DNA from: an uncultured delta proteobacterium
GTDB taxonomy: Bacteria; Myxococcota_A; Polyangia; Polyangiales; Polyangiaceae
Reading direction: 5' to 3'
NCBI GenBank assembly: GCA_963841435.1
Contig: CAWJCS010000006.1
Span: 768,001 to 832,000, forward strand
DNA length: 64,000 nt
Position 1 is the first letter of the stretch. Each line of letters starts with the position of its first letter. A program made the translations under genes and the position numbers. The notes below the pieces were generated by a model. It was not told the origin of the DNA and made no database searches. It saw nothing but the letters and a program-made list of their open reading frames with translations. Positions 17,144 through 26,528 of the stretch are shown here, piece after piece.

Positions 17144-17184
17144 CGCCCTTCAAGGGAACGATTGCTCGACCCCTGCCGGGCTAG

Positions 17185-17381
17185 CACTACTGTCAGAGTC
17201 TTGGAGGAACAGATCACGATCCGGCAGAGAGAACATGAGCCACGAAAGCAACTGGCGAGGCCAGCGGGCGGCCGTCTTCGAGCACGAAATGGACGCAAGA
17301 CGTGGGCGCCGCCGTCCGAAAAGTTCGCCGCTCGCCAATCTGCGAATTTCTCGAAGGAAACGCGAATCTCTGACAGTAGTG
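17185..17381. mobile_element. 197-bp MITE, copy 1
   Basis: Perfect 14-bp TIRs CACTACTGTCAGAG/CTCTGACAGTAGTG, flanked by CTAG (17181-17184) and CCAG (17382-17385). Three mismatches to copy 2. Confidence 0.88.
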
Positions 17382-17391
17382 CCAGGCGTCG

Positions 17392-18393
17392 CTACGCGCC
17401 CGTTTGCCGCGCCACCTGCAGGAGCTCCTCGCGGGTCTTCACTCCCAACTTCGAAGCAGCACGTGCCATCAACACCCGAACGGTGGAGTCGGCAATGCCA
17501 AGCTCGTAGGCGATGAGCTTGTTGTGGTGTCCAAGTAGCGCGTAGCCGATGACCTGGCGTTCCCGGTCGCTCAATGCCCCGGGCCCAAGCGCCTTGGGCT
17601 CGTTTTGCCGTGCGACGATGTAGCGGCGCCCGTCGTGCTCCAGCTGGTCAACGAGCGACCATTGTCCGGCGACCAACGCCCGCCATTCGCCCAGCGCGCG
17701 GTCGGGATCGCCGATTCGCTCGGGGCCGCGCACCTTCTCCATCGTGAGCACCGCGCTGCGAAGCGATTCGCGAGCCAGTGCCTGGCTTGCCGCGCCCGTC
17801 GCGTCGTGCAATTTCCCGTTGGGGTCAAAAATAGCAGCGGGCTGCTCCGGGCTCGGGTCGGACCGGAGCCGAGTCCGGAGGCGTACCGCGCTCGAGAGGT
17901 GGGCGGCAATCCGCCCCCAGCGTCTGATGTCTCGTTGGGACGCCCAGGCGATGCGCTTGCGCCCCGCATGGAACCCACAGCCGTGACCCGTCGGATCGGT
18001 CGCGGTGATCCAGATCGAATCGAACATGCCGAAGCGCTGCAAGCCCTGCTTCATTTGGGGAAGCTCCGCAAATTCCTCCCTCATACCCATCATCTGGCTG
18101 CCGGTGACGCAGGGGCCCATCTCGAAGGGACGCTGTCGCAGCGTCGGGTCCATGTTCGCGAAGAGCTTCGGGTACGTTGCCGCCAGGGGCTCCGGCATCC
18201 ACAAGTGCTGGCTCTGCAACATCTTGGGAGGCTGGTGCGGAGCGCGAACGAACTCGAATGCAGCAAGGCCGAAACCCTCGTCCAAATGGGGCCTGATGGC
18301 CTCCGCAATCGCCCGAAGCCACACGTCGCCGGGAACGTCCAGCTGGTACGCCGCCTCCACGATGCTCAAGAGATCGAAACGGTCACGTGACAT
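17392..18393 (-). CDS. LuxR-family HTH transcriptional regulator
   Basis: C-terminal 'LSDRERQVIGYALLGHHNKLIAYELGIADSTVRVLMARAASKLGVKTREEL'. Confidence 0.9.
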   Translation of the reverse strand: MSRDRFDLLSIVEAAYQLDVPGDVWLRAIAEAIRPHLDEGFGLAAFEFVRAPHQPPKMLQSQHLWMPEPLAATYPKLFANMDPTLRQRPFEMGPCVTGSQMMGMREEFAELPQMKQGLQRFGMFDSIWITATDPTGHGCGFHAGRKRIAWASQRDIRRWGRIAAHLSSAVRLRTRLRSDPSPEQPAAIFDPNGKLHDATGAASQALARESLRSAVLTMEKVRGPERIGDPDRALGEWRALVAGQWSLVDQLEHDGRRYIVARQNEPKALGPGALSDRERQVIGYALLGHHNKLIAYELGIADSTVRVLMARAASKLGVKTREELLQVARQTGA

Positions 18394-18656
18394 CGAAGCT
18401 CCGGTCGCGCGCCGCACACTACATCTTAGGGGCTCGCCTCACCAGTGCCGTGCCCAATCGACCGCTACCCCGCGAGAATGTGGCTCAGAACGCCTGTTTA
18501 CGGGTTTCGTGTAAGCCCGTCTTTTCTTGAGTTTGTCGGCGGCTCGCTGCAGCCTGTGCTCTGCAGGCACGTTGAGAAGTCGGCCCCGTCGGAGACACGC
18601 GGGCGGCGGAACGGGAGGGGTGCGCCCGCATTGGACGAGGATCGGAGGTGTGGATC

Positions 18657-19424
18657 ATGAGCGAGCAGAATATTTCGGAGCTGCGGACCCTGGTGATGCG
18701 AGCCGATGGCGTGCCGGCGACCATACAAAGGTCCGCAGAGCTCTGGTTCGGGCTCGTGCGCGGAGAGCTGGAGGTGGCGGGACGCTTCATGACGAGTGAC
18801 CGCGAATATCTGGTTCTCGGTGAACGACCAGATCGTCAGACGCCCCTCTGCGGGCGCAAGCTCGACATTTTGCAGAGCGTGCTCGTCGGCGTCAGTCGCA
18901 AGGTCGTGTCCTTCGACTTCGAAATCTCGCCCTCCACGGTCGCACTGGCCCTCAGCGCTGCGCTGCGTGATTTGGGGCTCGATTGCTCACCAGGGCGCAT
19001 CCCGCCACTGCTCGTGGTGCTCGCGCGTGCGGCTCGCGGCGACCGGGTTCGCTCGGTGGTGACCATCGCCGACATCGAGCACGGCGGCCTGCGCTATCAC
19101 GTGGTGGCAAGGGACGTGGACAGTCCGCTCTTCGAGGTGCTCGCCCCGGCACAGCGAGCCGTGCTGAGGCAATTGATCCAAGGCAGCACCTATGCGGATA
19201 TTGCCGCCCGCCGGCGCACGTCATCACGCACGGTCGCCAATCAGGTCGCCGCGGCGTGCCGTCGGCTCGGCGTGTCCGGGCGGTTCGACCTCGTCCAGTT
19301 CGTCGTATCGGACGATGTCGTCACCGATGGGGCGCATCCGTGGCAGGCGCCCCGTTCGGCAATGTCGCCAGCGGCCGATTCAGTGCCGAGCGACAGAGGT
19401 GCCGGCGTCGGCGCTCAAGGATGA
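18657..19424 (+). CDS. Regulator with two tandem LuxR-type HTH domains
   Basis: 'LCGRKLDILQSVLVGVSRKVVSFDFEISPSTV' and 'LAPAQRAVLRQLIQGSTYADIAARRRTSSRTVANQV'. Confidence 0.8.
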   Translation: MSEQNISELRTLVMRADGVPATIQRSAELWFGLVRGELEVAGRFMTSDREYLVLGERPDRQTPLCGRKLDILQSVLVGVSRKVVSFDFEISPSTVALALSAALRDLGLDCSPGRIPPLLVVLARAARGDRVRSVVTIADIEHGGLRYHVVARDVDSPLFEVLAPAQRAVLRQLIQGSTYADIAARRRTSSRTVANQVAAACRRLGVSGRFDLVQFVVSDDVVTDGAHPWQAPRSAMSPAADSVPSDRGAGVGAQG

Positions 19425-19534
19425 TGGTCGTGCCGCAGATTGCATCCTGGTGGCTGGCTCCGTGCTCGCCCTCGGAAAGAACACCATTGCGCCATCGTGC
19501 ATGACGTGGTGAGGAATCGTTCCCGGGAAACAGC

Positions 19535-21239
19535 ATGGCCAAGTCCAGCGATCCTCGAGCTCTGGAGCTACTGAACGCCGTGGAACTAGCCACCCCCTTC
19601 GGGTGCGACGCCGCTGCGCCGCACGTCGAAGAGCTGACGGCGCTCGTCAACGCGTGGTCGGAGCCCGAGGCCCGCCGGCTGCTCGATACGCTGCGAAAGA
19701 GTCGCTGTTTCGACGCAATGCTGCGCGCTTGTGATGCGCTTCTTGCAGCGGATGCGGAGTTTCCCTACCTGCGCCGGCAGTATGCGCAGGCAATGATCGA
19801 GAGAGGGCTCTTCACGCAAGCGAAGCGTGAGCTCACGAGCCTGCTCGCGGATCTGCCGGAGGCGACCGCCGCAGAGCACGCCGAAGGACGCCGCGAGCGT
19901 AGCGAAGCTCTCGGCCTCTTGGGTAGACTCCACAAGCAGACGTTCGTGGCACAGGTTGCGAACGCCCCGCGCGCGGCGCGCGAGCTCAACGCAGCAATCG
20001 AGTGGTATGCCACGGCGTACCGCGACGATCCGGCGTGGCACGGCGCAAACCTCGTCGCGCTCCTGCATCGCGCCGAGCGCGATCGCATCCCGCTCCAGTC
20101 GGGCCGCCGCTCGGAGGACGCCGCCAGGGCGCTGCTGAAGGATCTGGGTGCGCCGAGCCGTGCTTGGTCTGCCTGGACTTTTGCCGGAGCGGGCGAAGCC
20201 TACCTGGCGCTCTCGGACTGGGGAAATGCCCGCTACTGTTACGGCCGATTCGCCCAACACGAGTCCGTCGATGGGTTCGCGATTGCGGGCGCAACCCGAC
20301 AGCTGCGCGAGATCTGGCTCGTGGACCCGGACGACAGCGAGCCGGGCGCGATTCTCACTGCGCTCGAGGCGCGTATCCTGTTCAACGGGGCGCGGCGGCG
20401 GGCTTTCGTCTTCGCCCGAGCATCTCGAACGCTTGCTTACCGCGCTGCGCCGGGCGAGCGCCGGACCGCAGGAGGCGCTCGAGGCAATCCTCGGCGAGAC
20501 TCGGGAGATCTCGATTCACGATGTGCTCGGCTTGCTCGACGTGGCTCGCGTGGTGGGACAGGTCGTCAATCGGTACCAATTCGAAAAGCGGATCCCCACC
20601 GGTGGCACGGGCTTCTTGATCGATGGTGGCGCCCTCCGGGAGGACTGGCGTGGACGCACGCTACTGCTCACCAATCACCATGTCCTCAGCAAGGACGGGG
20701 CGGACGGGAGCGTGGCCGGCGCCGACGCCGACGTACTCTTTCAATTCTGGAATGGCACCCGCAGCGTGAGACGGTTCAGAGTCGGTGAGATCGTCGCAAC
20801 GTCGCCGAGGGCGGATTGCGACTTCGCCCTGGCCGCGCTCGAAGGCGACCGTGCCGAGCTCACCGAGCATCACCCCGTGCTGGAGATGGGCGCGAACGCG
20901 CTCGGCCCGCGCGGGAGCAAGCCAAAAGCGCGGATCTACGTGGTGGGTCACCCCAGAGGGCGCGGTCTCGAATTCAGCTTGACCGACAACGAGGTCCTCG
21001 ATCACGAGCTTGCCACGGGCGGCGTCCCGCGCCGTCGCATTCACTACCGGGCTCCCACGGAAGAAGGCATGTCCGGAAGCCCGGTCCTCGATGCCCAGCG
21101 GCTCCGTGTCGTGGGACTGCATCGTTCGAGCACGAGGTCTCCACTCCTCGCCACGGACGGACCGGCGGGCTACCGCGCGAACGAAGCCATCTGGATCGGC
21201 TCGGTGAAGGAAGCCTGCCTACGGGTCCCAAACAGCTAG
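19535..21239 (+). CDS. TPR-sensor-like (TPR-S/DUF4071-like) domain fused to a trypsin-like (V8-type) serine protease (~567 aa; +1 frameshift near 20381)
   Basis: N-part 'RQYAQAMIE', 'EALGLLGRLHKQ', 'AIEWYATAY..WHGANLVAL' and 'GEAYLAL'. C-part 'GTGFLI', 'TNHHV', 'DFALA', 'TEEGMSGSPV' and 'VGLH'. The two halves are in adjacent frames. Confidence 0.8.
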
Positions 21240-21317
21240 ATCAGGCGGGACCGCCCTTTTCGGGGCGAGCGAGCCATCGGGTAAGCTCGGCGAGCTCGCG
21301 CCCCGCGAGCTCGAGTC

Positions 21318-22571
21318 ATGGCGACGACACGCATCCTCGTGAGCCACCCCGCGGGACCACTCGGGGAGTCCCTTGGTGATCGAGCGCAGATGGCGCTCGA
21401 GAAGGCCTTCCCCGACGCCGTGGTCGTCGCCTCGCACTCAGTGCCCGCGGGTGAGGTCGAGTCCGACGCGGAAGCGGAGCGCTTCGATCTGGTGGTCGTG
21501 CTGATGGATGCCGAGTGGGTCTCGACGTTCGCCAGCCGCCCGGATGATGGGGTTCTTAGGACCGTCGAATGGGCGTTGGCGCGCGGGTTCCAGCTGTCGC
21601 CCGTACTGCTCGACAACACGGAACTGCCCGCGGAGAGTCTGCTCCCCGAGAGCATCCGCGGCCTTTGGGCCTACAAGCACCATCGCCTGCGCAGCCGCGA
21701 TGAATTTCGCACCACCATGACGTCGCTCGTGGGTGGATTGAGGCGCGGGGCCCTGGCCCGGCAGGAAGCTCGAGGTGCCCGACGGCGACGGACGCGGCTT
21801 CTCGCCGTCGGCGTGACCGCGGCAGCCATCGTCGCTGCCACGATCGTCGTGGCGCCGGCAGGTCGCGGACCGCTTCCCGACGCGGCTCTTGCAGCGCTCG
21901 ACGACGCCGGTGCTCCGCCTCCGACGGCCGGGCCGCCGCCGCCAACCACCGCCCCGTCCGAGACCTCGTCCTCGTCGCCGGCCACCCCACCCCCGTCGGA
22001 TTCCGGGTCGAAAGCGGAGCCGAAGGAACAGACTTTCAAGCGCTCGCCGCCGCCCCCCGCCAACGTGGTCCGTTCCGAAGTGGCCGCCGCAGGACCCGAG
22101 ACCCCGTCGAAACCGCCGACGGACGAGGACTGTCGCAACTCGTCCGGGTGCCGCCAAGCGGCCCGCTGCACCGCGAAGAACGGCCGCTGCGAGCGAGCGT
22201 CGGACGCGGACTGTGAGCGCTCGGAGCTCTGCAAGAACGGCGGGTTGTGCGTGTTCCACTACGACCGCTGCGCGACGAAATCGCACGAAAGCTGTCGGCG
22301 CTCGGCGTACTGCGCGAGCCAGGGCTTTTGCACCGCCAAGGACGGCCTCTGCCAGCGCCTCTCGAGCGAGGACTGCCGGCGGTCCGCGCTCTGCAAGCAC
22401 GACGGGCAGTGCTCGCTGGCGAGCGAAGTCTGCGTTGCCCGCTCCGACTCGGAGTGCCGAGCGTCGGAACTATGCGCGCAGGAGGGCAAGTGCGTCGCCT
22501 ATCAATCCGTGTGCGTCACGGCCGAAGCGAAGAAGGCTCGACTCGACGCGGAGGCGGCGCTCTTCGACTAG
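21318..22571 (+). CDS. Degenerate TIR domain + TM helix + Pro/Ser stalk + five 27-aa Cys-rich repeats
   Basis: The N-terminus aligns by eye with the neighbouring TIR ('LVVVLMDAEW..DDGVLRTVEWAL..PVLL..LP..LP'). TM 'LLAVGVTAAAIVAATIVVA' follows an Arg run. Repeats are C-x5-C-x5-C-x6-C-x7. Confidence 0.75.
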   Translation: MATTRILVSHPAGPLGESLGDRAQMALEKAFPDAVVVASHSVPAGEVESDAEAERFDLVVVLMDAEWVSTFASRPDDGVLRTVEWALARGFQLSPVLLDNTELPAESLLPESIRGLWAYKHHRLRSRDEFRTTMTSLVGGLRRGALARQEARGARRRRTRLLAVGVTAAAIVAATIVVAPAGRGPLPDAALAALDDAGAPPPTAGPPPPTTAPSETSSSSPATPPPSDSGSKAEPKEQTFKRSPPPPANVVRSEVAAAGPETPSKPPTDEDCRNSSGCRQAARCTAKNGRCERASDADCERSELCKNGGLCVFHYDRCATKSHESCRRSAYCASQGFCTAKDGLCQRLSSEDCRRSALCKHDGQCSLASEVCVARSDSECRASELCAQEGKCVAYQSVCVTAEAKKARLDAEAALFD

Positions 22572-22654
22572 CCGGCGCGACAAAACTACTAGTGACGCGC
22601 GGCTCCACCGCACCTAGCATCCGGCGGGCGGAGTCGCCCCGCAAGTTTGGACTC

Positions 22655-24413
22655 ATGGCGATCTTCATCTGTTACCGCCACAGCGAGCTGGGTGATGCCG
22701 TCACCGGGCGCATCCAGGATTGGCTCGAACACAGGTTCGGTGCGGTGAAAGTCGTTCGGGACGTTCGAGCACGTCCCGCCCGGCGTGGGTTTCGCCGAGC
22801 AGCTCGAGCGCGCACTGGCTTCGTGCCAGGCGCTCCTGGTCGTCATCGGAGAGGACTGGTCGCTCGAGCGCCTGCAGTCGCCAGACGACTTCGTGCGCAT
22901 CGAAGTCGAATCTGCCGTCGCGCACGGCGCGTCGCTGATCCCGGTGGTGCTGCCGGGGGCGAAGGTGCCACCCCCCTCCGCGTTGCCTCCCGGCATGCAG
23001 GCACTCTCGGCGAGCGAGGCTTACCCCCTGCGCCTTCCGAAGTCGGAGTTCTCGGCGGACATGCAGGCCATTCAAAAGGCGATCGCGCCCTCGCTCCGTC
23101 CGCCGCCCCGCGAGCTCTGGCGTCGCCGCGTCCTCATCGGCGCCCTCGTCCTTTCGACGCTCGCTGCCACGCTTGCCGTCGCGTTTGCGGCCGTCCGCTT
23201 GCTCCCGCGGGTCCTCGCGTCCTTCTCCGGGTCGGCGGGTGCCCGCCCCGACCCAGCTCCCCCCGTCGAGCGGCTTACCGTCGAGCCAACGAGGCCGGAT
23301 GCCTCGCCAGCGCCGGTGGCCGCCACTGGAGCACCGCCGACCGCCCATGGCCCCGCGGCGCGACCCGCGATACCGCCTTTTGCGCCAGCCGGAGCGGCGC
23401 GGGCGACTCGCACCATTCCTGGCGCCATCGCGGGCGATACGTCGTGCCTCGACTCGACGCTATGCAAGGAGAGCGGCCTGTGCGTTTCCGTGAAGAACGA
23501 CGGTGGGGGCGCGGCGTCCGTGATCTGTGTCGCCGGGTCCGACCGCGACTGCAGGGCCACGACCGAGGCTTGCCCCATCTACGGTCAATGCAGCCTCGGG
23601 GAGCGACGCTGCATCGCGAAGTCGGACGCGGACTGCCGAAACGCGAAGGTCTGTGCGCAGCAGGGAGAATGCAGCGCTTCAAACGGTTTCTGCGTCGCGA
23701 CCGCCGACGCCGACTGCAAACGGTCGGTGGCCTGCCACCTCGAAGGTTCCTGCACGGCGAAGGATCGCCGCTGCGTCGCCGGCTCGGACGAGGACTGCCG
23801 CGCGTCTGAGCTGTCGTGCCAGAAGAGGGGCAAGTGTACGGCCAAGAACGGGGTGTGCATCGCCGCCGCACGGGCGGACTGCGTGGCGACCCTCGATTGC
23901 AAGGAGCGGGGATGGTGCACGCCGATCGACGGCGCGTGCCATGCGGGCTCCGACGCCGATTGTCGTGAATCGAATCGGTGTCCCGCCGACGCCCTATGCA
24001 GCCTGGCGCGGGAGGGCAGCTCACCCTCCTGCAAGATCAAGTCGAACGAAGACTGCAAGCGCTGGGTGAAGTGCAAGGAAGTCGGGAAATGCAAATGGAC
24101 GGGCCAGGAGAGCTTCACGGCGGTCAACGTCTGCTACCCGGGCTCGGACGCGGATTGCCGGCGTTCGGTCGCCTGCAAGAAGGACGGGCGCTGCGTGATC
24201 GACAAGCTCGAGCCGCAGACGTGCACGATGCCGCCGCCGCCCATCATCGACGGCGATGCCCCGAGGGCAGGAAAGCCTGCCGGTGCTTCGAAGCAACCCG
24301 CGCCATCCACTAGCGACGGGACCACGAGAACCGCATTCGAGAAGGATCGCAAAAACAACAAGGCCGAAGACGAGCCGCCCGACGGGCAGGCCTCCGAGCC
24401 GAAGAAGGAGTGA
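22655..24413 (+). CDS. TIR (TIR_2) domain + TM helix + Pro stalk + nine Cys-rich repeats (~585 aa; +1 frameshift at ~22764)
   Basis: 'MAIFICYR..RIQDWLEHRFG..RDVEHVPPGVGF..LLVVIGEDW..DDFVRIEV..IPVVLPGA..LP'. TM 'VLIGALVLSTLAATLAVAFAAV'. Repeats 'GSDADC'. Confidence 0.85.
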
Positions 24414-24544
24414 CGCGGACGGCGGATCGCCGCTCCCGATGACCCACCCGCGGCCGGAAACCGAAAACGCAGTCAATTCATGACTTCAGCGGGTCTCGTG
24501 ACCGAGCGGCAGGGCCTCGGACCACCTTTCCATGCTGAGGCACC

Positions 24545-26299
24545 ATGATATCCCACCCGATCGCCCGACGACTGCTGGAGCTCCTCTTCGCCGCCGGCCT
24601 CCTTCTCGGGGCGCGGAATGCCGCGGCCACCGACTACTACGTGGCCACGACCGGCGACGATTCGAACGCCGGCACCAGCATCGATCAGCCGTTTGCCTCG
24701 CTGCAGCGAGCGCACAGCGCCGTCATGGCGGGCGACACCGTGTACATCCGCGGTGGGACGTACGCGATCGTCACGCCCGCCACGTCCAGCGCGGGGGTCT
24801 CGATCACGAAGAGCGGGACCTCGGACACGAACCGCATCAAGTTCTGGGCGTACAACGGCGAAGTGCCGGTGTTCGACTTCGCGATGCTCCAGATCTCCAC
24901 GAACGGCTACACGAACGGCTTCACCGTGAGCGGGAGCTTTCTCCACTTCAAGGGGCTCGAGATCAAGAACGTGCCGATGAACACCAACTCGAACAACGGC
25001 ATGTCGTCGAGCGGCAGCAACAACGTCTTCGAGCTCATCAATTTCCACCACAACAACGGCACCGGCCTGTTCATCAACGGTGGCATGGGGGGCAACCTCA
25101 TTTTGAACTGCGATTCCCACGACAATTACGACCCCACCTCTTCGCAGGGCGACGGGCAGAACGCCGACGGCTTCGGTGTGCACTACCAGATGAGCGGCGC
25201 GAGCACGGTCATCAGCGGTTGCCGCGCGTGGTGGGACTCGGACGACGGCTACGATCTCATCAACCACGAAGTTCCGGTCACCATCGAGAACTCCTGGGCC
25301 ATGGGCAACGGCTACATCAATTCGGGTGCCGCGCGGCCCGCCGACGGAAACGGCAACGGCTTCAAGGCGGGGAGCAGCAAGACCGGCGCCCGGCACATCA
25401 TCCGGAATTGCCTCGCCTGGGGGAACGTCGCGTCCGGCTTCTACGCCAACCATTCCTTGGGCGGGAACACTTGGTACAACAACACCTCGTACCGAAACGG
25501 TACGCAGTACAACATGCTCGCGACCGACCCGACCGACTCGACCGGCGTCAAGGTCACCCTGATGGGTGACAAGGTCCACATCATGCGGAACAACATCGGC
25601 TATCCCAACAAGAACAGCAACATGGAGGGCGTCGACACGGCGCAAAATAGTTGGGATCTCGGTATCACGCCCGCCGACAGCGACTTCGTGAGCGTGAGCG
25701 ACATGGGCTTCAAGATGGCCCCGCGTCAGGCGGACGGGAGCCTGCCGAACCTGGACTTCATGAAACTCAGCGCCACGGGCAACATGATCGACAAGGGCGA
25801 GGACGTGGGCCTGCCTTACGCCGGCACCGCGCCCGATCTGGGCTGCTTCGAAACGGGCCTGCCGAGCGGCGGCACGGGTGGATCTGGAGAGTCTGGAGCG
25901 GGCGCCGGGGGAACAGGAAACGGCGGCGCCGAGACTGCGGGCGGCGGGGTGGGCGGAGCGACGGCCGGTGCCCCGGCGACGGGTGGCTCCAACATGGGAG
26001 GCGCGTTCACGGGCGGCGCGGGATCGAACGCGGGTGCAACTGGGGCGGGCACGGGTGGCGCCGGCGGCAGCGGCGGCGCCAATGCCGGAACCGGGGGCAG
26101 CGTTGTCGCGAGCGGCGGAACGAGCACGGGCACGGCCGGTGCGTCGGGCGCGACGGCAAGCGCAGACTCCGCATCGGATCAAGCTGGCTGCGGCTGCGAG
26201 CTCGTGGGCCGCCGAAGCAGCTCTTTTGGTGCCGCGCTCGCCGCGCTACTACTGGTTTCGCTCGGCGCGCGCCGACGCCGCTCGATCGACACGCGCTAG
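24545..26299 (+). CDS. Polysaccharide lyase family 9 (pectate lyase-like beta-helix) with MYXO-CTERM anchor
   Basis: 'YYVATTGDDSNAGT..PFASL', 'NADGFG', 'SDDGYD' and 'GNGFKAG'. C-terminal 'GCGC..LAALLLVSLGARRRR'. Confidence 0.88.
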   Translation: MISHPIARRLLELLFAAGLLLGARNAAATDYYVATTGDDSNAGTSIDQPFASLQRAHSAVMAGDTVYIRGGTYAIVTPATSSAGVSITKSGTSDTNRIKFWAYNGEVPVFDFAMLQISTNGYTNGFTVSGSFLHFKGLEIKNVPMNTNSNNGMSSSGSNNVFELINFHHNNGTGLFINGGMGGNLILNCDSHDNYDPTSSQGDGQNADGFGVHYQMSGASTVISGCRAWWDSDDGYDLINHEVPVTIENSWAMGNGYINSGAARPADGNGNGFKAGSSKTGARHIIRNCLAWGNVASGFYANHSLGGNTWYNNTSYRNGTQYNMLATDPTDSTGVKVTLMGDKVHIMRNNIGYPNKNSNMEGVDTAQNSWDLGITPADSDFVSVSDMGFKMAPRQADGSLPNLDFMKLSATGNMIDKGEDVGLPYAGTAPDLGCFETGLPSGGTGGSGESGAGAGGTGNGGAETAGGGVGGATAGAPATGGSNMGGAFTGGAGSNAGATGAGTGGAGGSGGANAGTGGSVVASGGTSTGTAGASGATASADSASDQAGCGCELVGRRSSSFGAALAALLLVSLGARRRRSIDTR

Positions 26300-26496
26300 C
26301 ACTACTGTCAGAGTCTTGGAGGAACAGCTCACGATCCGGCAGAGAGAACATGAGCCACGAAAGCAACTGGCGCGGCCAGCGGGCGGCCGTCTACGAGCAC
26401 GAAATGGACGCAAGACGTGGGCGCCGCCGTCCGAAAAGTTCGCCGCTCGCCAATCTGCGAATTTCTCGAAGGAAACGCGAATCTCTGACAGTAGTG
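26300..26496. mobile_element. 197-bp MITE, copy 2
   Basis: Same TIRs as copy 1, with CTAG on both sides (26296-26299 and 26497-26500). The left CTAG contains the PL9 stop codon. Confidence 0.9.
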
Positions 26497-26528
26497 CTAG
26501 GTAGGCGTTTCCCGTGCGCTCGCGTGGA

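Follow-up and report, generated by a model that had tools for sequence, protein, structure and literature searches.

A candidate Thoeris-like cassette of two membrane-anchored TIR proteins and a TPR-S/trypsin-like protein in a myxobacterial genome

We analyzed a 64,000-nucleotide stretch of DNA (the window; all positions below refer to it) from an uncultured member of the Polyangiaceae, probably a soil myxobacterium (GenBank assembly GCA_963841435.1, contig CAWJCS010000006.1, positions 768,001 to 832,000), and describe here three genes of the same orientation. Two of them, gene 1 and gene 2, encode the same order of parts: about 145 N-terminal residues, a run of arginines, one hydrophobic helix, a proline-rich stretch and a series of cysteine (Cys) repeats. 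A first-pass annotation, made from the sequence letters alone, had described these as two adjacent, co-oriented genes for a TIR domain, a basic patch, a transmembrane (TM) helix, a Pro linker and Cys repeats, and this order is seen in both translations. The third gene, which stops 79 nt ahead of gene 1 and was passed over in that annotation, joins a TPR-S domain to a trypsin-like peptidase. We propose that the three genes form one Thoeris-like signalling cassette, in which membrane TIR sensors are coupled to a signal-gated protease effector, and we would give this reading an even chance of being correct.

In the proposed mechanism, the SARM1-like TIR domain of gene 2 would be switched on by engagement of its ectodomain or by clustering at the envelope, and would then cleave NAD+ and/or make a signal derived from ADP-ribose. 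The TPR-S domain of the upstream protein could read this signal and release the protease as effector. Gene 1 would at most co-assemble with gene 2 or add a second ectodomain specificity.

The TIR domain of gene 2

Gene 2 begins with an ATG at 22655 and runs for 37 codons in one frame, after which the coding sequence continues in a frame that is open over 22749..24413; the switch lies at ~22766-22769. When the gene was read through with an X at the break, it gave a protein of 585 residues (P0001) that matched the Pfam family TIR_2 (PF13676) with 37.1 bits (cut-off 28), and the score fell to 20.5 bits when the first 37 residues were left out. The first-pass annotation had suspected a frameshift near ~22764; relatives of gene 2 read 'VFRDVDAIPPGV' and 'IFYDLVHIPPGQ' across the break. 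A start at GTG 22785 (the 542-aa form, P0002) was rejected as the functional product, since this form would lack the first TIR strands.

The closest relatives of gene 2 (36-46% identity) are TIR_2 proteins with varied C-terminal partners, and an FGE-sulfatase domain is fused to the TIR in 12 of the 48 nearest. An alignment of 16 TIR domains (gene 2 and 15 relatives) contained 25 invariant columns, including Y7, R8, D78, V80, R81 and E83, and gene 2 retains all 25 of them, the extra base aside. The Glu of its motif 'DDFVRIEV', already singled out as catalytic in the first-pass annotation, is E83 and is invariant in all 16 sequences. In the PDB, every one of the 19 distinct sequences matched by the profile of this alignment was a SARM1/TIR-1 chain (best E 5.2e-7), and gene 2 alone gave weak matches, again all to SARM1 (seven of seven rows, E 0.037). 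In the profile alignment, 'DFVRiEVeaAL' stands opposite 'DWVHKEIVTAL' of SARM1, and E83 opposite the Glu of 'DWVHKE'. By the offset derived from the profile alignment, this is the catalytic Glu numbered E642 in SARM1. In a study of such domains, the Glu aligned with E83 (its E75) is critical for NADase activity (PMC7075850).

The first strand also resembles that of SARM1, in that 'SYRR' aligns with 'CYRH' of gene 2, and the 'SYR(R)' pocket residues Y7 and R8 are kept. Gene 2 differs from SARM1 in that it has no ARM or SAM domains and in that its TIR domain is N-terminal and predicted to be membrane-tethered, with an ectodomain. SARM1 itself has been placed inside a bacterial TIR clade (PMC13142454). 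By its score the gene 2 TIR is a member of TIR_2. Judging from these residues and profiles, it is plausibly an enzyme of the SARM1-like kind, and we predict that it is an NADase.

The degenerate TIR domain of gene 1

Gene 1 is an intact open reading frame (ORF) of 417 aa (21318..22571, + strand) that matched 0 Pfam families at E<=1. Its N-terminus aligned with the TIR profile of the gene 2 relatives over 142 columns (hhalign 97.4%, E 1.1e-11), and gene 1 scored 36.1 bits against the hidden Markov model (HMM) of the TIR subfamily. A BLASTP comparison of gene 1 with gene 2 gave 33% identity over 80 aa (E 2e-9). These similarities indicate that the N-terminus is a real but divergent TIR homologue, as the first-pass annotation had supposed. 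The two genes themselves are diverged tandem paralogues.

Eleven of the 25 invariant TIR columns are retained in gene 1, and Y7, R8, R81 and E83 are among those lost. In its motif 'DDGVLRTV', Thr82 occupies the column of the catalytic Glu and a Leu takes the place of R81; its first strand is degenerate, reading 'ILVSHPAG' versus 'IFICYRHS' in gene 2, with His-Pro in place of Tyr-Arg. Both the Thr and the degenerate strand had been recognized in the first-pass annotation. Given that a Thr stands in the catalytic column, gene 1 should be unable to act as an NADase. In a FastTree phylogeny of TIR domains, taken without regard to support values, gene 1, gene 2 and a metagenome protein (P0063) group together, and the terminal branch of gene 1 is 2.92 long, versus 0.81 and 0.70 for the other two, which is ~3.6 times that of gene 2. 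A search with aa 1-150 of gene 1 against a collection of 5.8 billion proteins found no relative at E<=0.01, and in a search with the whole protein 0 of 8000 scored candidates passed, the query probably having been swamped by low-complexity words. Gene 1 thus has the appearance of a fast-evolving, catalytically dead copy.

The upstream TPR-S/trypsin gene and its linkage to TIR

The gene upstream of the TIR pair is likewise split between two frames. Residues 43-267 of the first piece matched residues 127-350 of a 795-aa protein from another genome of the phylum (G364) with 34% identity (E 1e-21), and the second piece (ORF aa 108-361) matched residues 389-625 with 35% identity (E 6e-24). Both pieces are therefore colinear with one protein, which carries TPR-S, Trypsin_2 and TIR_2 domains. 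Given that two frames match one continuous protein, we conclude that the TPR-S and trypsin pieces are a single split gene. A frame plot of GC content at third codon positions (GC3) also changes frame in this gene, at ~20250-20340.

TPR-S matches came from 16 of the 301 genomes searched in the phylum, and 14 control genomes gave none; the single TPR-S gene of the present genome is the one in the cassette. We surveyed the context of 17 TPR-S matches in 15 other genomes of the phylum. Fusions to Trypsin_2 (3), guanylate cyclase (3), patatin (1) and TIR_2 (2, G364 counted) were observed. G414 encodes a fusion of TIR_2 with TPR-S, and a TPR-S protein of G581 has a TIR protein on either side; in other words, TPR-S is linked to TIR in three of the 17 matches (G364, G414 and G581). 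Since TIR_2 is scarce (only 2-9 matches each in five of the TPR-S genomes searched), this is far above chance, for which our own rough estimate is ~0.1 expected linkages. We also scanned metagenomes with two motifs of the gene 2 TIR, which gave 289 relatives, and examined the best 80 (77 loci, 80 TIR ORFs). At the metagenome locus L101, a TPR-S protein (67.1 bits) lies 2.6 kb downstream of a TIR-TM gene. We consider the TPR-S/trypsin gene to be the better candidate partner of the TIR pair. A literature search returned no paper that names TPR-S/PF20308 in the sense used here.

At four loci (L136, L137, L142 and L129), TPR-S is fused to adenylate/guanylate cyclase (three genomes) or to a patatin-like phospholipase. 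We would read these fusions as further effector types joined to the same presumed sensor.

Comparison with known systems

The closest comparison is with the Thoeris anti-phage systems. In a recent report (10.64898/2025.12.03.692087), type IV Thoeris contains a caspase-like protease activated by a TIR product, and the type VIII effector ThsI has a TPR domain that is presumed to perceive cyclic ADP-ribose (cADPR), as predicted earlier by Burroughs and Aravind. The cassette resembles these two types in that one or more TIR genes stand beside a gene in which a TPR, the putative ligand reader, is fused to an effector enzyme, here a protease. It differs from them in its effector, which combines TPR-S with a trypsin-like peptidase in place of a caspase-like protease or a cytidine monophosphate (CMP) hydrolase, and in its TIR proteins, which are predicted to be anchored in the membrane with a domain outside. 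That report also tabulates 29 putative Thoeris types, and the configuration of the cassette could be among them. If the cassette reading is true, it would add a second protease-type Thoeris effector.

Several observations weigh against this reading. Fourteen of the 17 TPR-S matches have no TIR within 4.5 kb, the other two TPR-S/trypsin proteins (G590 and G411) have no TIR_2 on their contig, and where TPR-S is fused to a TIR elsewhere, that TIR is of another TIR_2 subfamily. Of the 77 metagenome TIR loci, one has a clear TPR-S neighbor, the median locus being only 4.3 kb long. The comparison also assumes that ThsI carries a TPR of the Pfam TPR-S family. The NCBIfam Thoeris models gave at best 12.7 bits (ThcB4, versus a cut-off of 220), and PADLOC returned no match for gene 2, a low-complexity match to PD-T4-6 in gene 1 (aa 143-288) and generic protease and helix-turn-helix (HTH) matches. 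The TIR-like domain of gene 1 is an orphan on a long branch, which decay fits as well as a regulatory role. As for distribution, a TIR joined to the repeats was not found in 40 other genomes, 24 of them of the genus; the gene 2 TIR matched at E<=1e-8 in one of 300 other genomes of the order, in a protein lacking the repeats; and a search of 46 other genomes of the genus for the protease part gave no match. The cassette is strain-specific, confined to one genome, and if both of its frame breaks are real it is dead in the organism.

Genes 1 and 2 also resemble Toll-like receptors, having a repeat ectodomain, one TM helix and a cytoplasmic TIR. They differ in that the order is inverted, with an N-terminal TIR and a predicted type II topology, in that the ectodomain consists of a four-Cys helix-hairpin repeat instead of LRRs (no LRR family was matched in either gene by Pfam), and in that the gene 2 TIR would be of the enzymatic SARM1 kind instead of a scaffold. 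The resemblance is best taken as analogy, not family membership. The inverted Toll-like receptor pictured in the first-pass annotation is thus a fair comparison, although a stand-alone co-receptor pair fits less well than a cassette with a protease.

Predicted conflict systems offer another comparison. According to Kaur et al. (PMC7159879, PMC8195603), these systems use TIR, trypsin or caspase effectors; the TIR and trypsin-like effectors and the enrichment in multicellular bacteria are shared with the cassette. The systems with lectin-type sensors (FGS/CLec, NPCBM), including CLec sensors diversified by diversity-generating retroelements (DGRs; PMC10907252), recall the TIR relatives of gene 2, which are often fused to FGE-sulfatase/FGS. 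This group of papers (PMC7159879, PMC8195603, PMC10907252) also describes sensors that a TM helix would put in the periplasm. The cassette differs from these systems in its sensor, a different Cys repeat for which there is no family model. No vWA, MoxR AAA+ or STAND NTPase was found in the 7 + 16 ORFs scanned, which are spread over 1.2-59 kb of the window.

Taken one step further, the locus could encode an outside-in TIR pathway, in which a disulfide-rich rod of a kind not described before is the envelope-facing receptor and drives a SARM1-like TIR signal, TPR-S reads it and a trypsin-like protease responds, while the dead TIR paralogue sets specificity or restrains the active one, like plant sensor/executor pairs. 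We consider it unlikely that this whole chain is correct. If it were, the locus would encode an immune or kin-sensing receptor directed at the exterior of the bacterial cell instead of its cytoplasm; in the bacterial TIR systems studied so far, infection is sensed inside the cell. A membrane TIR with an ectodomain tied to a TPR-S-gated protease would be a testable case of TIR signalling started at the envelope. The value of this proposal is tempered by the restriction of the cassette to one genome and by the frame breaks that the assembly shows in two of the three genes.

Frame breaks and the possibility of decay

To evaluate the frame breaks, we examined nine of them in the assembly, three in Pkinase domains, four in RND transporter genes and the two in the cassette. 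All nine are of the +1 type (one extra base), and at the kinase junctions the extra base looks like a doubled base. Natural indels have no one-sided +1 bias. Given that all breaks are +1, systematic single-base insertion errors in the assembly are favored over natural decay, and both cassette breaks are probably errors of this kind rather than real mutations. Programmed frameshifting is unlikely, as no slippery heptamer was seen by eye at either site.

Elsewhere, too, the assembly has such breaks: Pkinase matches are split between frames in three domains among 127, eight of eight AMP-binding domains are whole, and of eight RND transporter loci five are whole, one is split once, one is split at least three times and one is a fragment. 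The conserved genes of the window are whole, namely those for phosphoketolase (807 aa), acetate kinase, ATP synthase alpha and glycogen phosphorylase. Overlapping same-strand ORFs across the genome showed offsets of +1 in 182 cases and +2 in 227, a count that is dominated by true neighboring genes and is uninformative on the type of frameshift. In three soil-metagenome contig sets, the matches were three small, identical contigs of run X1 (21714-21878, 22062-22325 and 23019-23169); neither frame break is covered by them, and therefore the reads decide nothing on the breaks. The split kinase and RND genes lie at C3:1525160-1525934, C6:960866-961643, C4:257305-258067, C6:429667-432691 and C5:417006-420731.

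The alternative that bears most directly on these breaks is that the cassette is a decaying remnant, with both breaks real, gene 1 a duplicate in decay and the system no longer functional. It would account for the occurrence of two breaks within 4.9 kb while conserved neighbors are whole; with a background of ~7 breaks in ~127 kb of sampled domains, our own Poisson estimate for two in 4.9 kb is P ~0.03. It is also in line with the loss of 14 of the 25 invariant TIR columns in gene 1 and the lack of relatives found for it, with the strain-specific occurrence of the cassette, and with its GC3 of 0.75-0.87, under the 0.9-0.97 of the downstream gene. However, the uniform +1 type of the nine breaks is not what natural indels would give, and breaks also cluster in one transporter gene. 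Moreover, gene 1 keeps a perfect 20-Cys register in an open frame of 417 codons, and gene 2, its extra base aside, keeps every invariant TIR column. On balance, decay seems to us an unlikely explanation.

Pairing of the two TIR genes and the wider TIR-TM layout

The first-pass annotation regarded genes 1 and 2 as a receptor/co-receptor pair of an active enzyme and a pseudoenzyme. The contrast between a copy with and a copy without the catalytic Glu is real, but the pair is not a conserved unit: no second genome with it was found among 40 others or among 300 others of the order. In the model that follows from that annotation, an active/pseudoenzyme heteromer would sense an external ligand and kill or arrest the cell by direct depletion of NAD+, with no separate effector. 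The two genes are indeed adjacent paralogues that differ in repeat number and in the catalytic Glu, and tandem TIR-TM pairs occur at three of the 77 metagenome loci (L050, L054 and L073). Moreover, plants have heteromeric TIR pairs (RRS1-R/RPS4, PMC13732033), and SARM1-type TIRs can deplete NAD+ alone (PMC7075850). However, both copies in all three metagenome pairs keep 'DDFVRIE', so none is an active/dead pair, with the caveat that the search pattern required this motif. The absence of conserved pairing and the orphan state of the gene 1 domain are further difficulties, and the model leaves unexplained the adjacent TPR-S/protease gene and the fusion of such genes to TIR elsewhere. We therefore regard the heteromer model as rather improbable, and prefer the cassette that includes the protease.

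The arrangement of gene 2 itself is widespread in its subfamily. A TM helix follows the TIR in 54 of the 80 metagenome TIR ORFs, 45 of which have a single one; seven of the 80 are cut by a contig end and six have the TIR at the C-terminus. Pfam partners among the 80 were WD40 (9), FGE-sulfatase (8) and DUF4189 (1). An N-terminal SARM1-like TIR followed by a predicted TM helix is thus the commonest layout in this TIR subfamily. The metagenome fragment P0063, on a 2.6-kb contig, aligned with gene 2 without interruption from the TIR into the repeats (37% identity) and keeps 'DDFVRMELE'. Literature searches on transmembrane bacterial TIR receptors found no paper describing this architecture.

Other TIR proteins were seen in the course of these searches. 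At L054, two neighboring genes have the same make-up, namely a SARM1-like TIR, a long coiled region and a WD40 propeller. Contig 2 of the present genome encodes another TIR-TM protein with an unrelated ectodomain, and ordinary TIR-TM proteins are present in two relatives. The other SARM1-like TIR found in the 300 genomes of the order (L021:1276-2160, G256) is fused to CD225 (interferon-induced transmembrane protein/dispanin). The present genome also has a 707-codon frame (C5:845424-847544; L143:2425-4545, minus strand) with TIR_2 at aa 398-534, no other Pfam family and no TM helix.

The four-Cys repeat

The Cys repeats of the two proteins consist of 27-residue units with four Cys each. Gene 1 has 20 Cys with the spacings 6, 6, 7 and 8 repeated five times, and the 36 Cys of gene 2 form nine units, some of which carry insertions. 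A repeat HMM built from seven canonical units found five copies in gene 1 and nine in gene 2, in agreement with the Cys spacing and with the copy numbers given in the first-pass annotation. Tandem Repeats Finder detected no DNA-level tandem repeat in either gene, which suggests that the units arose long ago and have since diverged.

The two other repeat proteins of this genome, like the repeat proteins at the loci of relatives, start with a signal peptide and a lipobox Cys, which argues that the repeat is an extracytoplasmic module. According to the positive-inside rule, basic residues flank a TM helix on its cytoplasmic side, and the Arg patch ahead of the helix therefore suggests an N-in orientation. 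Genes 1 and 2 are accordingly predicted to be single-pass proteins with the N-terminus inside and the repeats outside; the same topology had been proposed in the first-pass annotation, and the repeat paralogues with signal peptides and lipoboxes lend it support.

The first-pass annotation had named the attachment of such ectodomains to unrelated N-termini, with no conserved pairing, as an outcome that would speak against its model, and this is what was seen: the repeats are joined to many unrelated N-termini, in lipoproteins and with Pkinase, CHAT, Amidase_2, FGE-sulfatase and OmpA domains. When gene 2 was used as phmmer query, 1,854 cluster representatives matched at E<=1e-10, although this query also contained most of the TIR. 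With the repeat alone, 43 of the 301 genomes searched in the phylum gave matches at E<=1e-8, and in one family 20 of 23 did so; the named records with the repeat are metagenome-assembled genomes (MAGs) of Myxococcales, Polyangiales and Polyangiaceae. We scanned 148 of the 149 best non-self repeat matches for Pfam partners (P0161 was left out for its size) and found Pkinase (7), FGE-sulfatase (4), TIR_2 (3) and OmpA (2), together with one each of CHAT, Amidase_2, LRR, Lcl_C, CsgG/FlgO, pentapeptide and a weak PDZ. The order TIR-Pkinase-TM-repeat is present in P0078 and P0116, and CHAT-Pkinase-TM-repeat in P0051. Given these positions behind TIR-Pkinase-TM and CHAT-Pkinase-TM, the repeat would serve as the outside module of several cytoplasmic death or signalling domains. 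On this evidence, the 27-residue four-Cys repeat appears to be a promiscuous extracytoplasmic module of Myxococcota. The proteins P0064-P0090, of ~650-720 residues, have an N-terminal TM helix, a ~200-residue domain without a Pfam family, a second TM helix and 11-16 Cys repeats.

An AlphaFold2 model of gene 1 aa 265-417, made with 56 sequences, had a pLDDT of 92.4 and a pTM of 0.69, and the predicted unit consists of two short helices and a beta hairpin. In Pfam, the best match of the repeat was EGF_2 with 14.9 bits, under the cut-off of 22.1, and no repeat model was matched. By sequence profile the repeat has no relative in the PDB, Foldseek with the model as query found nothing in the PDB at E<=10, and VIA-align over 48,161 chains gave a best Z of 2.0; the ESM Atlas held no usable match to the ectodomain. 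It should be noted that small units arranged in a 153-residue rod make a poor query for fold searches, and these empty searches do not prove a new fold. NCBIfam, which presumably includes TIGR04201, gave no Cys-repeat family model for genes 1 and 2 at E<=1. The Cys-rich repeat of TraA type from Myxococcales (TIGR04201; PMC3325183) is similar in being myxobacterial, extracytoplasmic and tandem, and differs in having three invariant and two marginal Cys, versus the four-Cys unit here. The repeat is thus a large family with a confidently predicted fold and no counterpart in Pfam, NCBIfam or the PDB. It is wired to kinases, CHAT proteases and TIRs, and its ligand would bear on many myxobacterial receptors.

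This wide use of the repeat, mostly in lipoproteins and with OmpA, Amidase_2, Lcl_C and kinase domains, and the ordinary neighboring genes would suit a last alternative, in which the proteins are not a conflict system but envelope or surface components (for adhesion, matrix or developmental signalling), with the rod as a structural part and the TIR as an assembly scaffold; we think this quite improbable, since gene 2 keeps all 25 invariant columns including the Glu and 'YR', the only solved relatives of its subfamily are SARM1 NADases, and the pair adjoins a TPR-S/protease gene of a type that is fused to TIR elsewhere.

Layout and surroundings of the locus

The features of the locus are listed in Table 1. 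Directly upstream of the three genes lies a gene for a LuxR/GerE-type regulator, whose N-terminal 160 aa matched no Pfam family; its inclusion in the cassette is uncertain.

Table 1. Features of the cassette and its immediate context (positions in the window)
Feature	Positions	Strand	Evidence and remarks
MITE-like element, 210 nt, copy 1 (context)	17177..17386	.	bracketing repeat
LuxR/GerE-type regulator gene	18648..19424	+	Pfam GerE 39.5 bits, aa 164-218; directly upstream of cassette, co-oriented
TPR-S/protease gene, first frame: TPR-S (Tetratricopeptide Repeats-Sensor)	19535..20401	+	Pfam TPR-S 54.4 bits, cut-off 27.6, aa 59-177
Frame break in TPR-S/trypsin gene (+1, one extra base, G-rich run)	20384..20403	+	both readings; GC3 frame plot
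TPR-S/protease gene, second frame: trypsin-like serine peptidase	20400..21239	+	Pfam Trypsin_2 73.7 bits, cut-off 27.6
Gene 1, predicted degenerate (pseudo-)TIR domain, aa 1-143	21318..21746	+	hhalign, BLASTP to gene 2
Gene 1, basic patch (aa 142-160) and predicted single TM helix (aa 161-181)	21741..21860	+	translation, hydropathy window
Gene 1, Pro/Ser/Thr-rich linker, aa 182-268	21861..22121	+	translation
Gene 1, five 27-residue four-Cys repeats (aa 269-403), C-terminal helix, stop codon	22122..22571	+	Cys spacing, repeat HMM, AlphaFold2
Gene 2, SARM1-like TIR domain, aa 1-145, one extra base at ~22766-22769	22655..23090	+	TIR_2 read-through, PDB profile search
Gene 2, predicted TM helix, basic 'RELWRRR' just before	23130..23195	+	translation, hydropathy
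Gene 2, nine four-Cys repeats	23436..24224	+	36 Cys; nine HMM repeats
Gene 2, Pro- and Lys/Glu-rich tail and stop codon	24225..24413	+	translation; similar tail in nearest relative P0063
MITE-like element, 210 nt, copy 2 (context)	26292..26501	.	98% identical to copy 1, same orientation

A scan for promoters and terminators over 18300-24700 found nothing within the cassette, and Rfam and tRNA scans of the window were empty. The neighboring genes are ordinary and include those for a Pel9A-like lyase and a ferritin-like protein. The closest orthologue of the Pel9A-like protein (75% identity, G325) has no other neighbor in common with it, and therefore the edges of the island could not be set by synteny. 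The GC3 of the cassette genes (18500-24400), lower than that of the Pel9A-like gene (24545-26299), is consistent with foreign origin or low expression.

The two copies of the 210-nt element flank 9.1 kb that contain two LuxR genes, the cassette and the Pel9A-like gene. The element has 18-bp terminal inverted repeats with CTAG ends, and pairs of it within 10 kb were observed twice in the genome, versus ~0.35 expected by chance. Given that 17 near-full copies with 97.5-100% identity are present genome-wide, the element appears to be a recently active MITE-like family.

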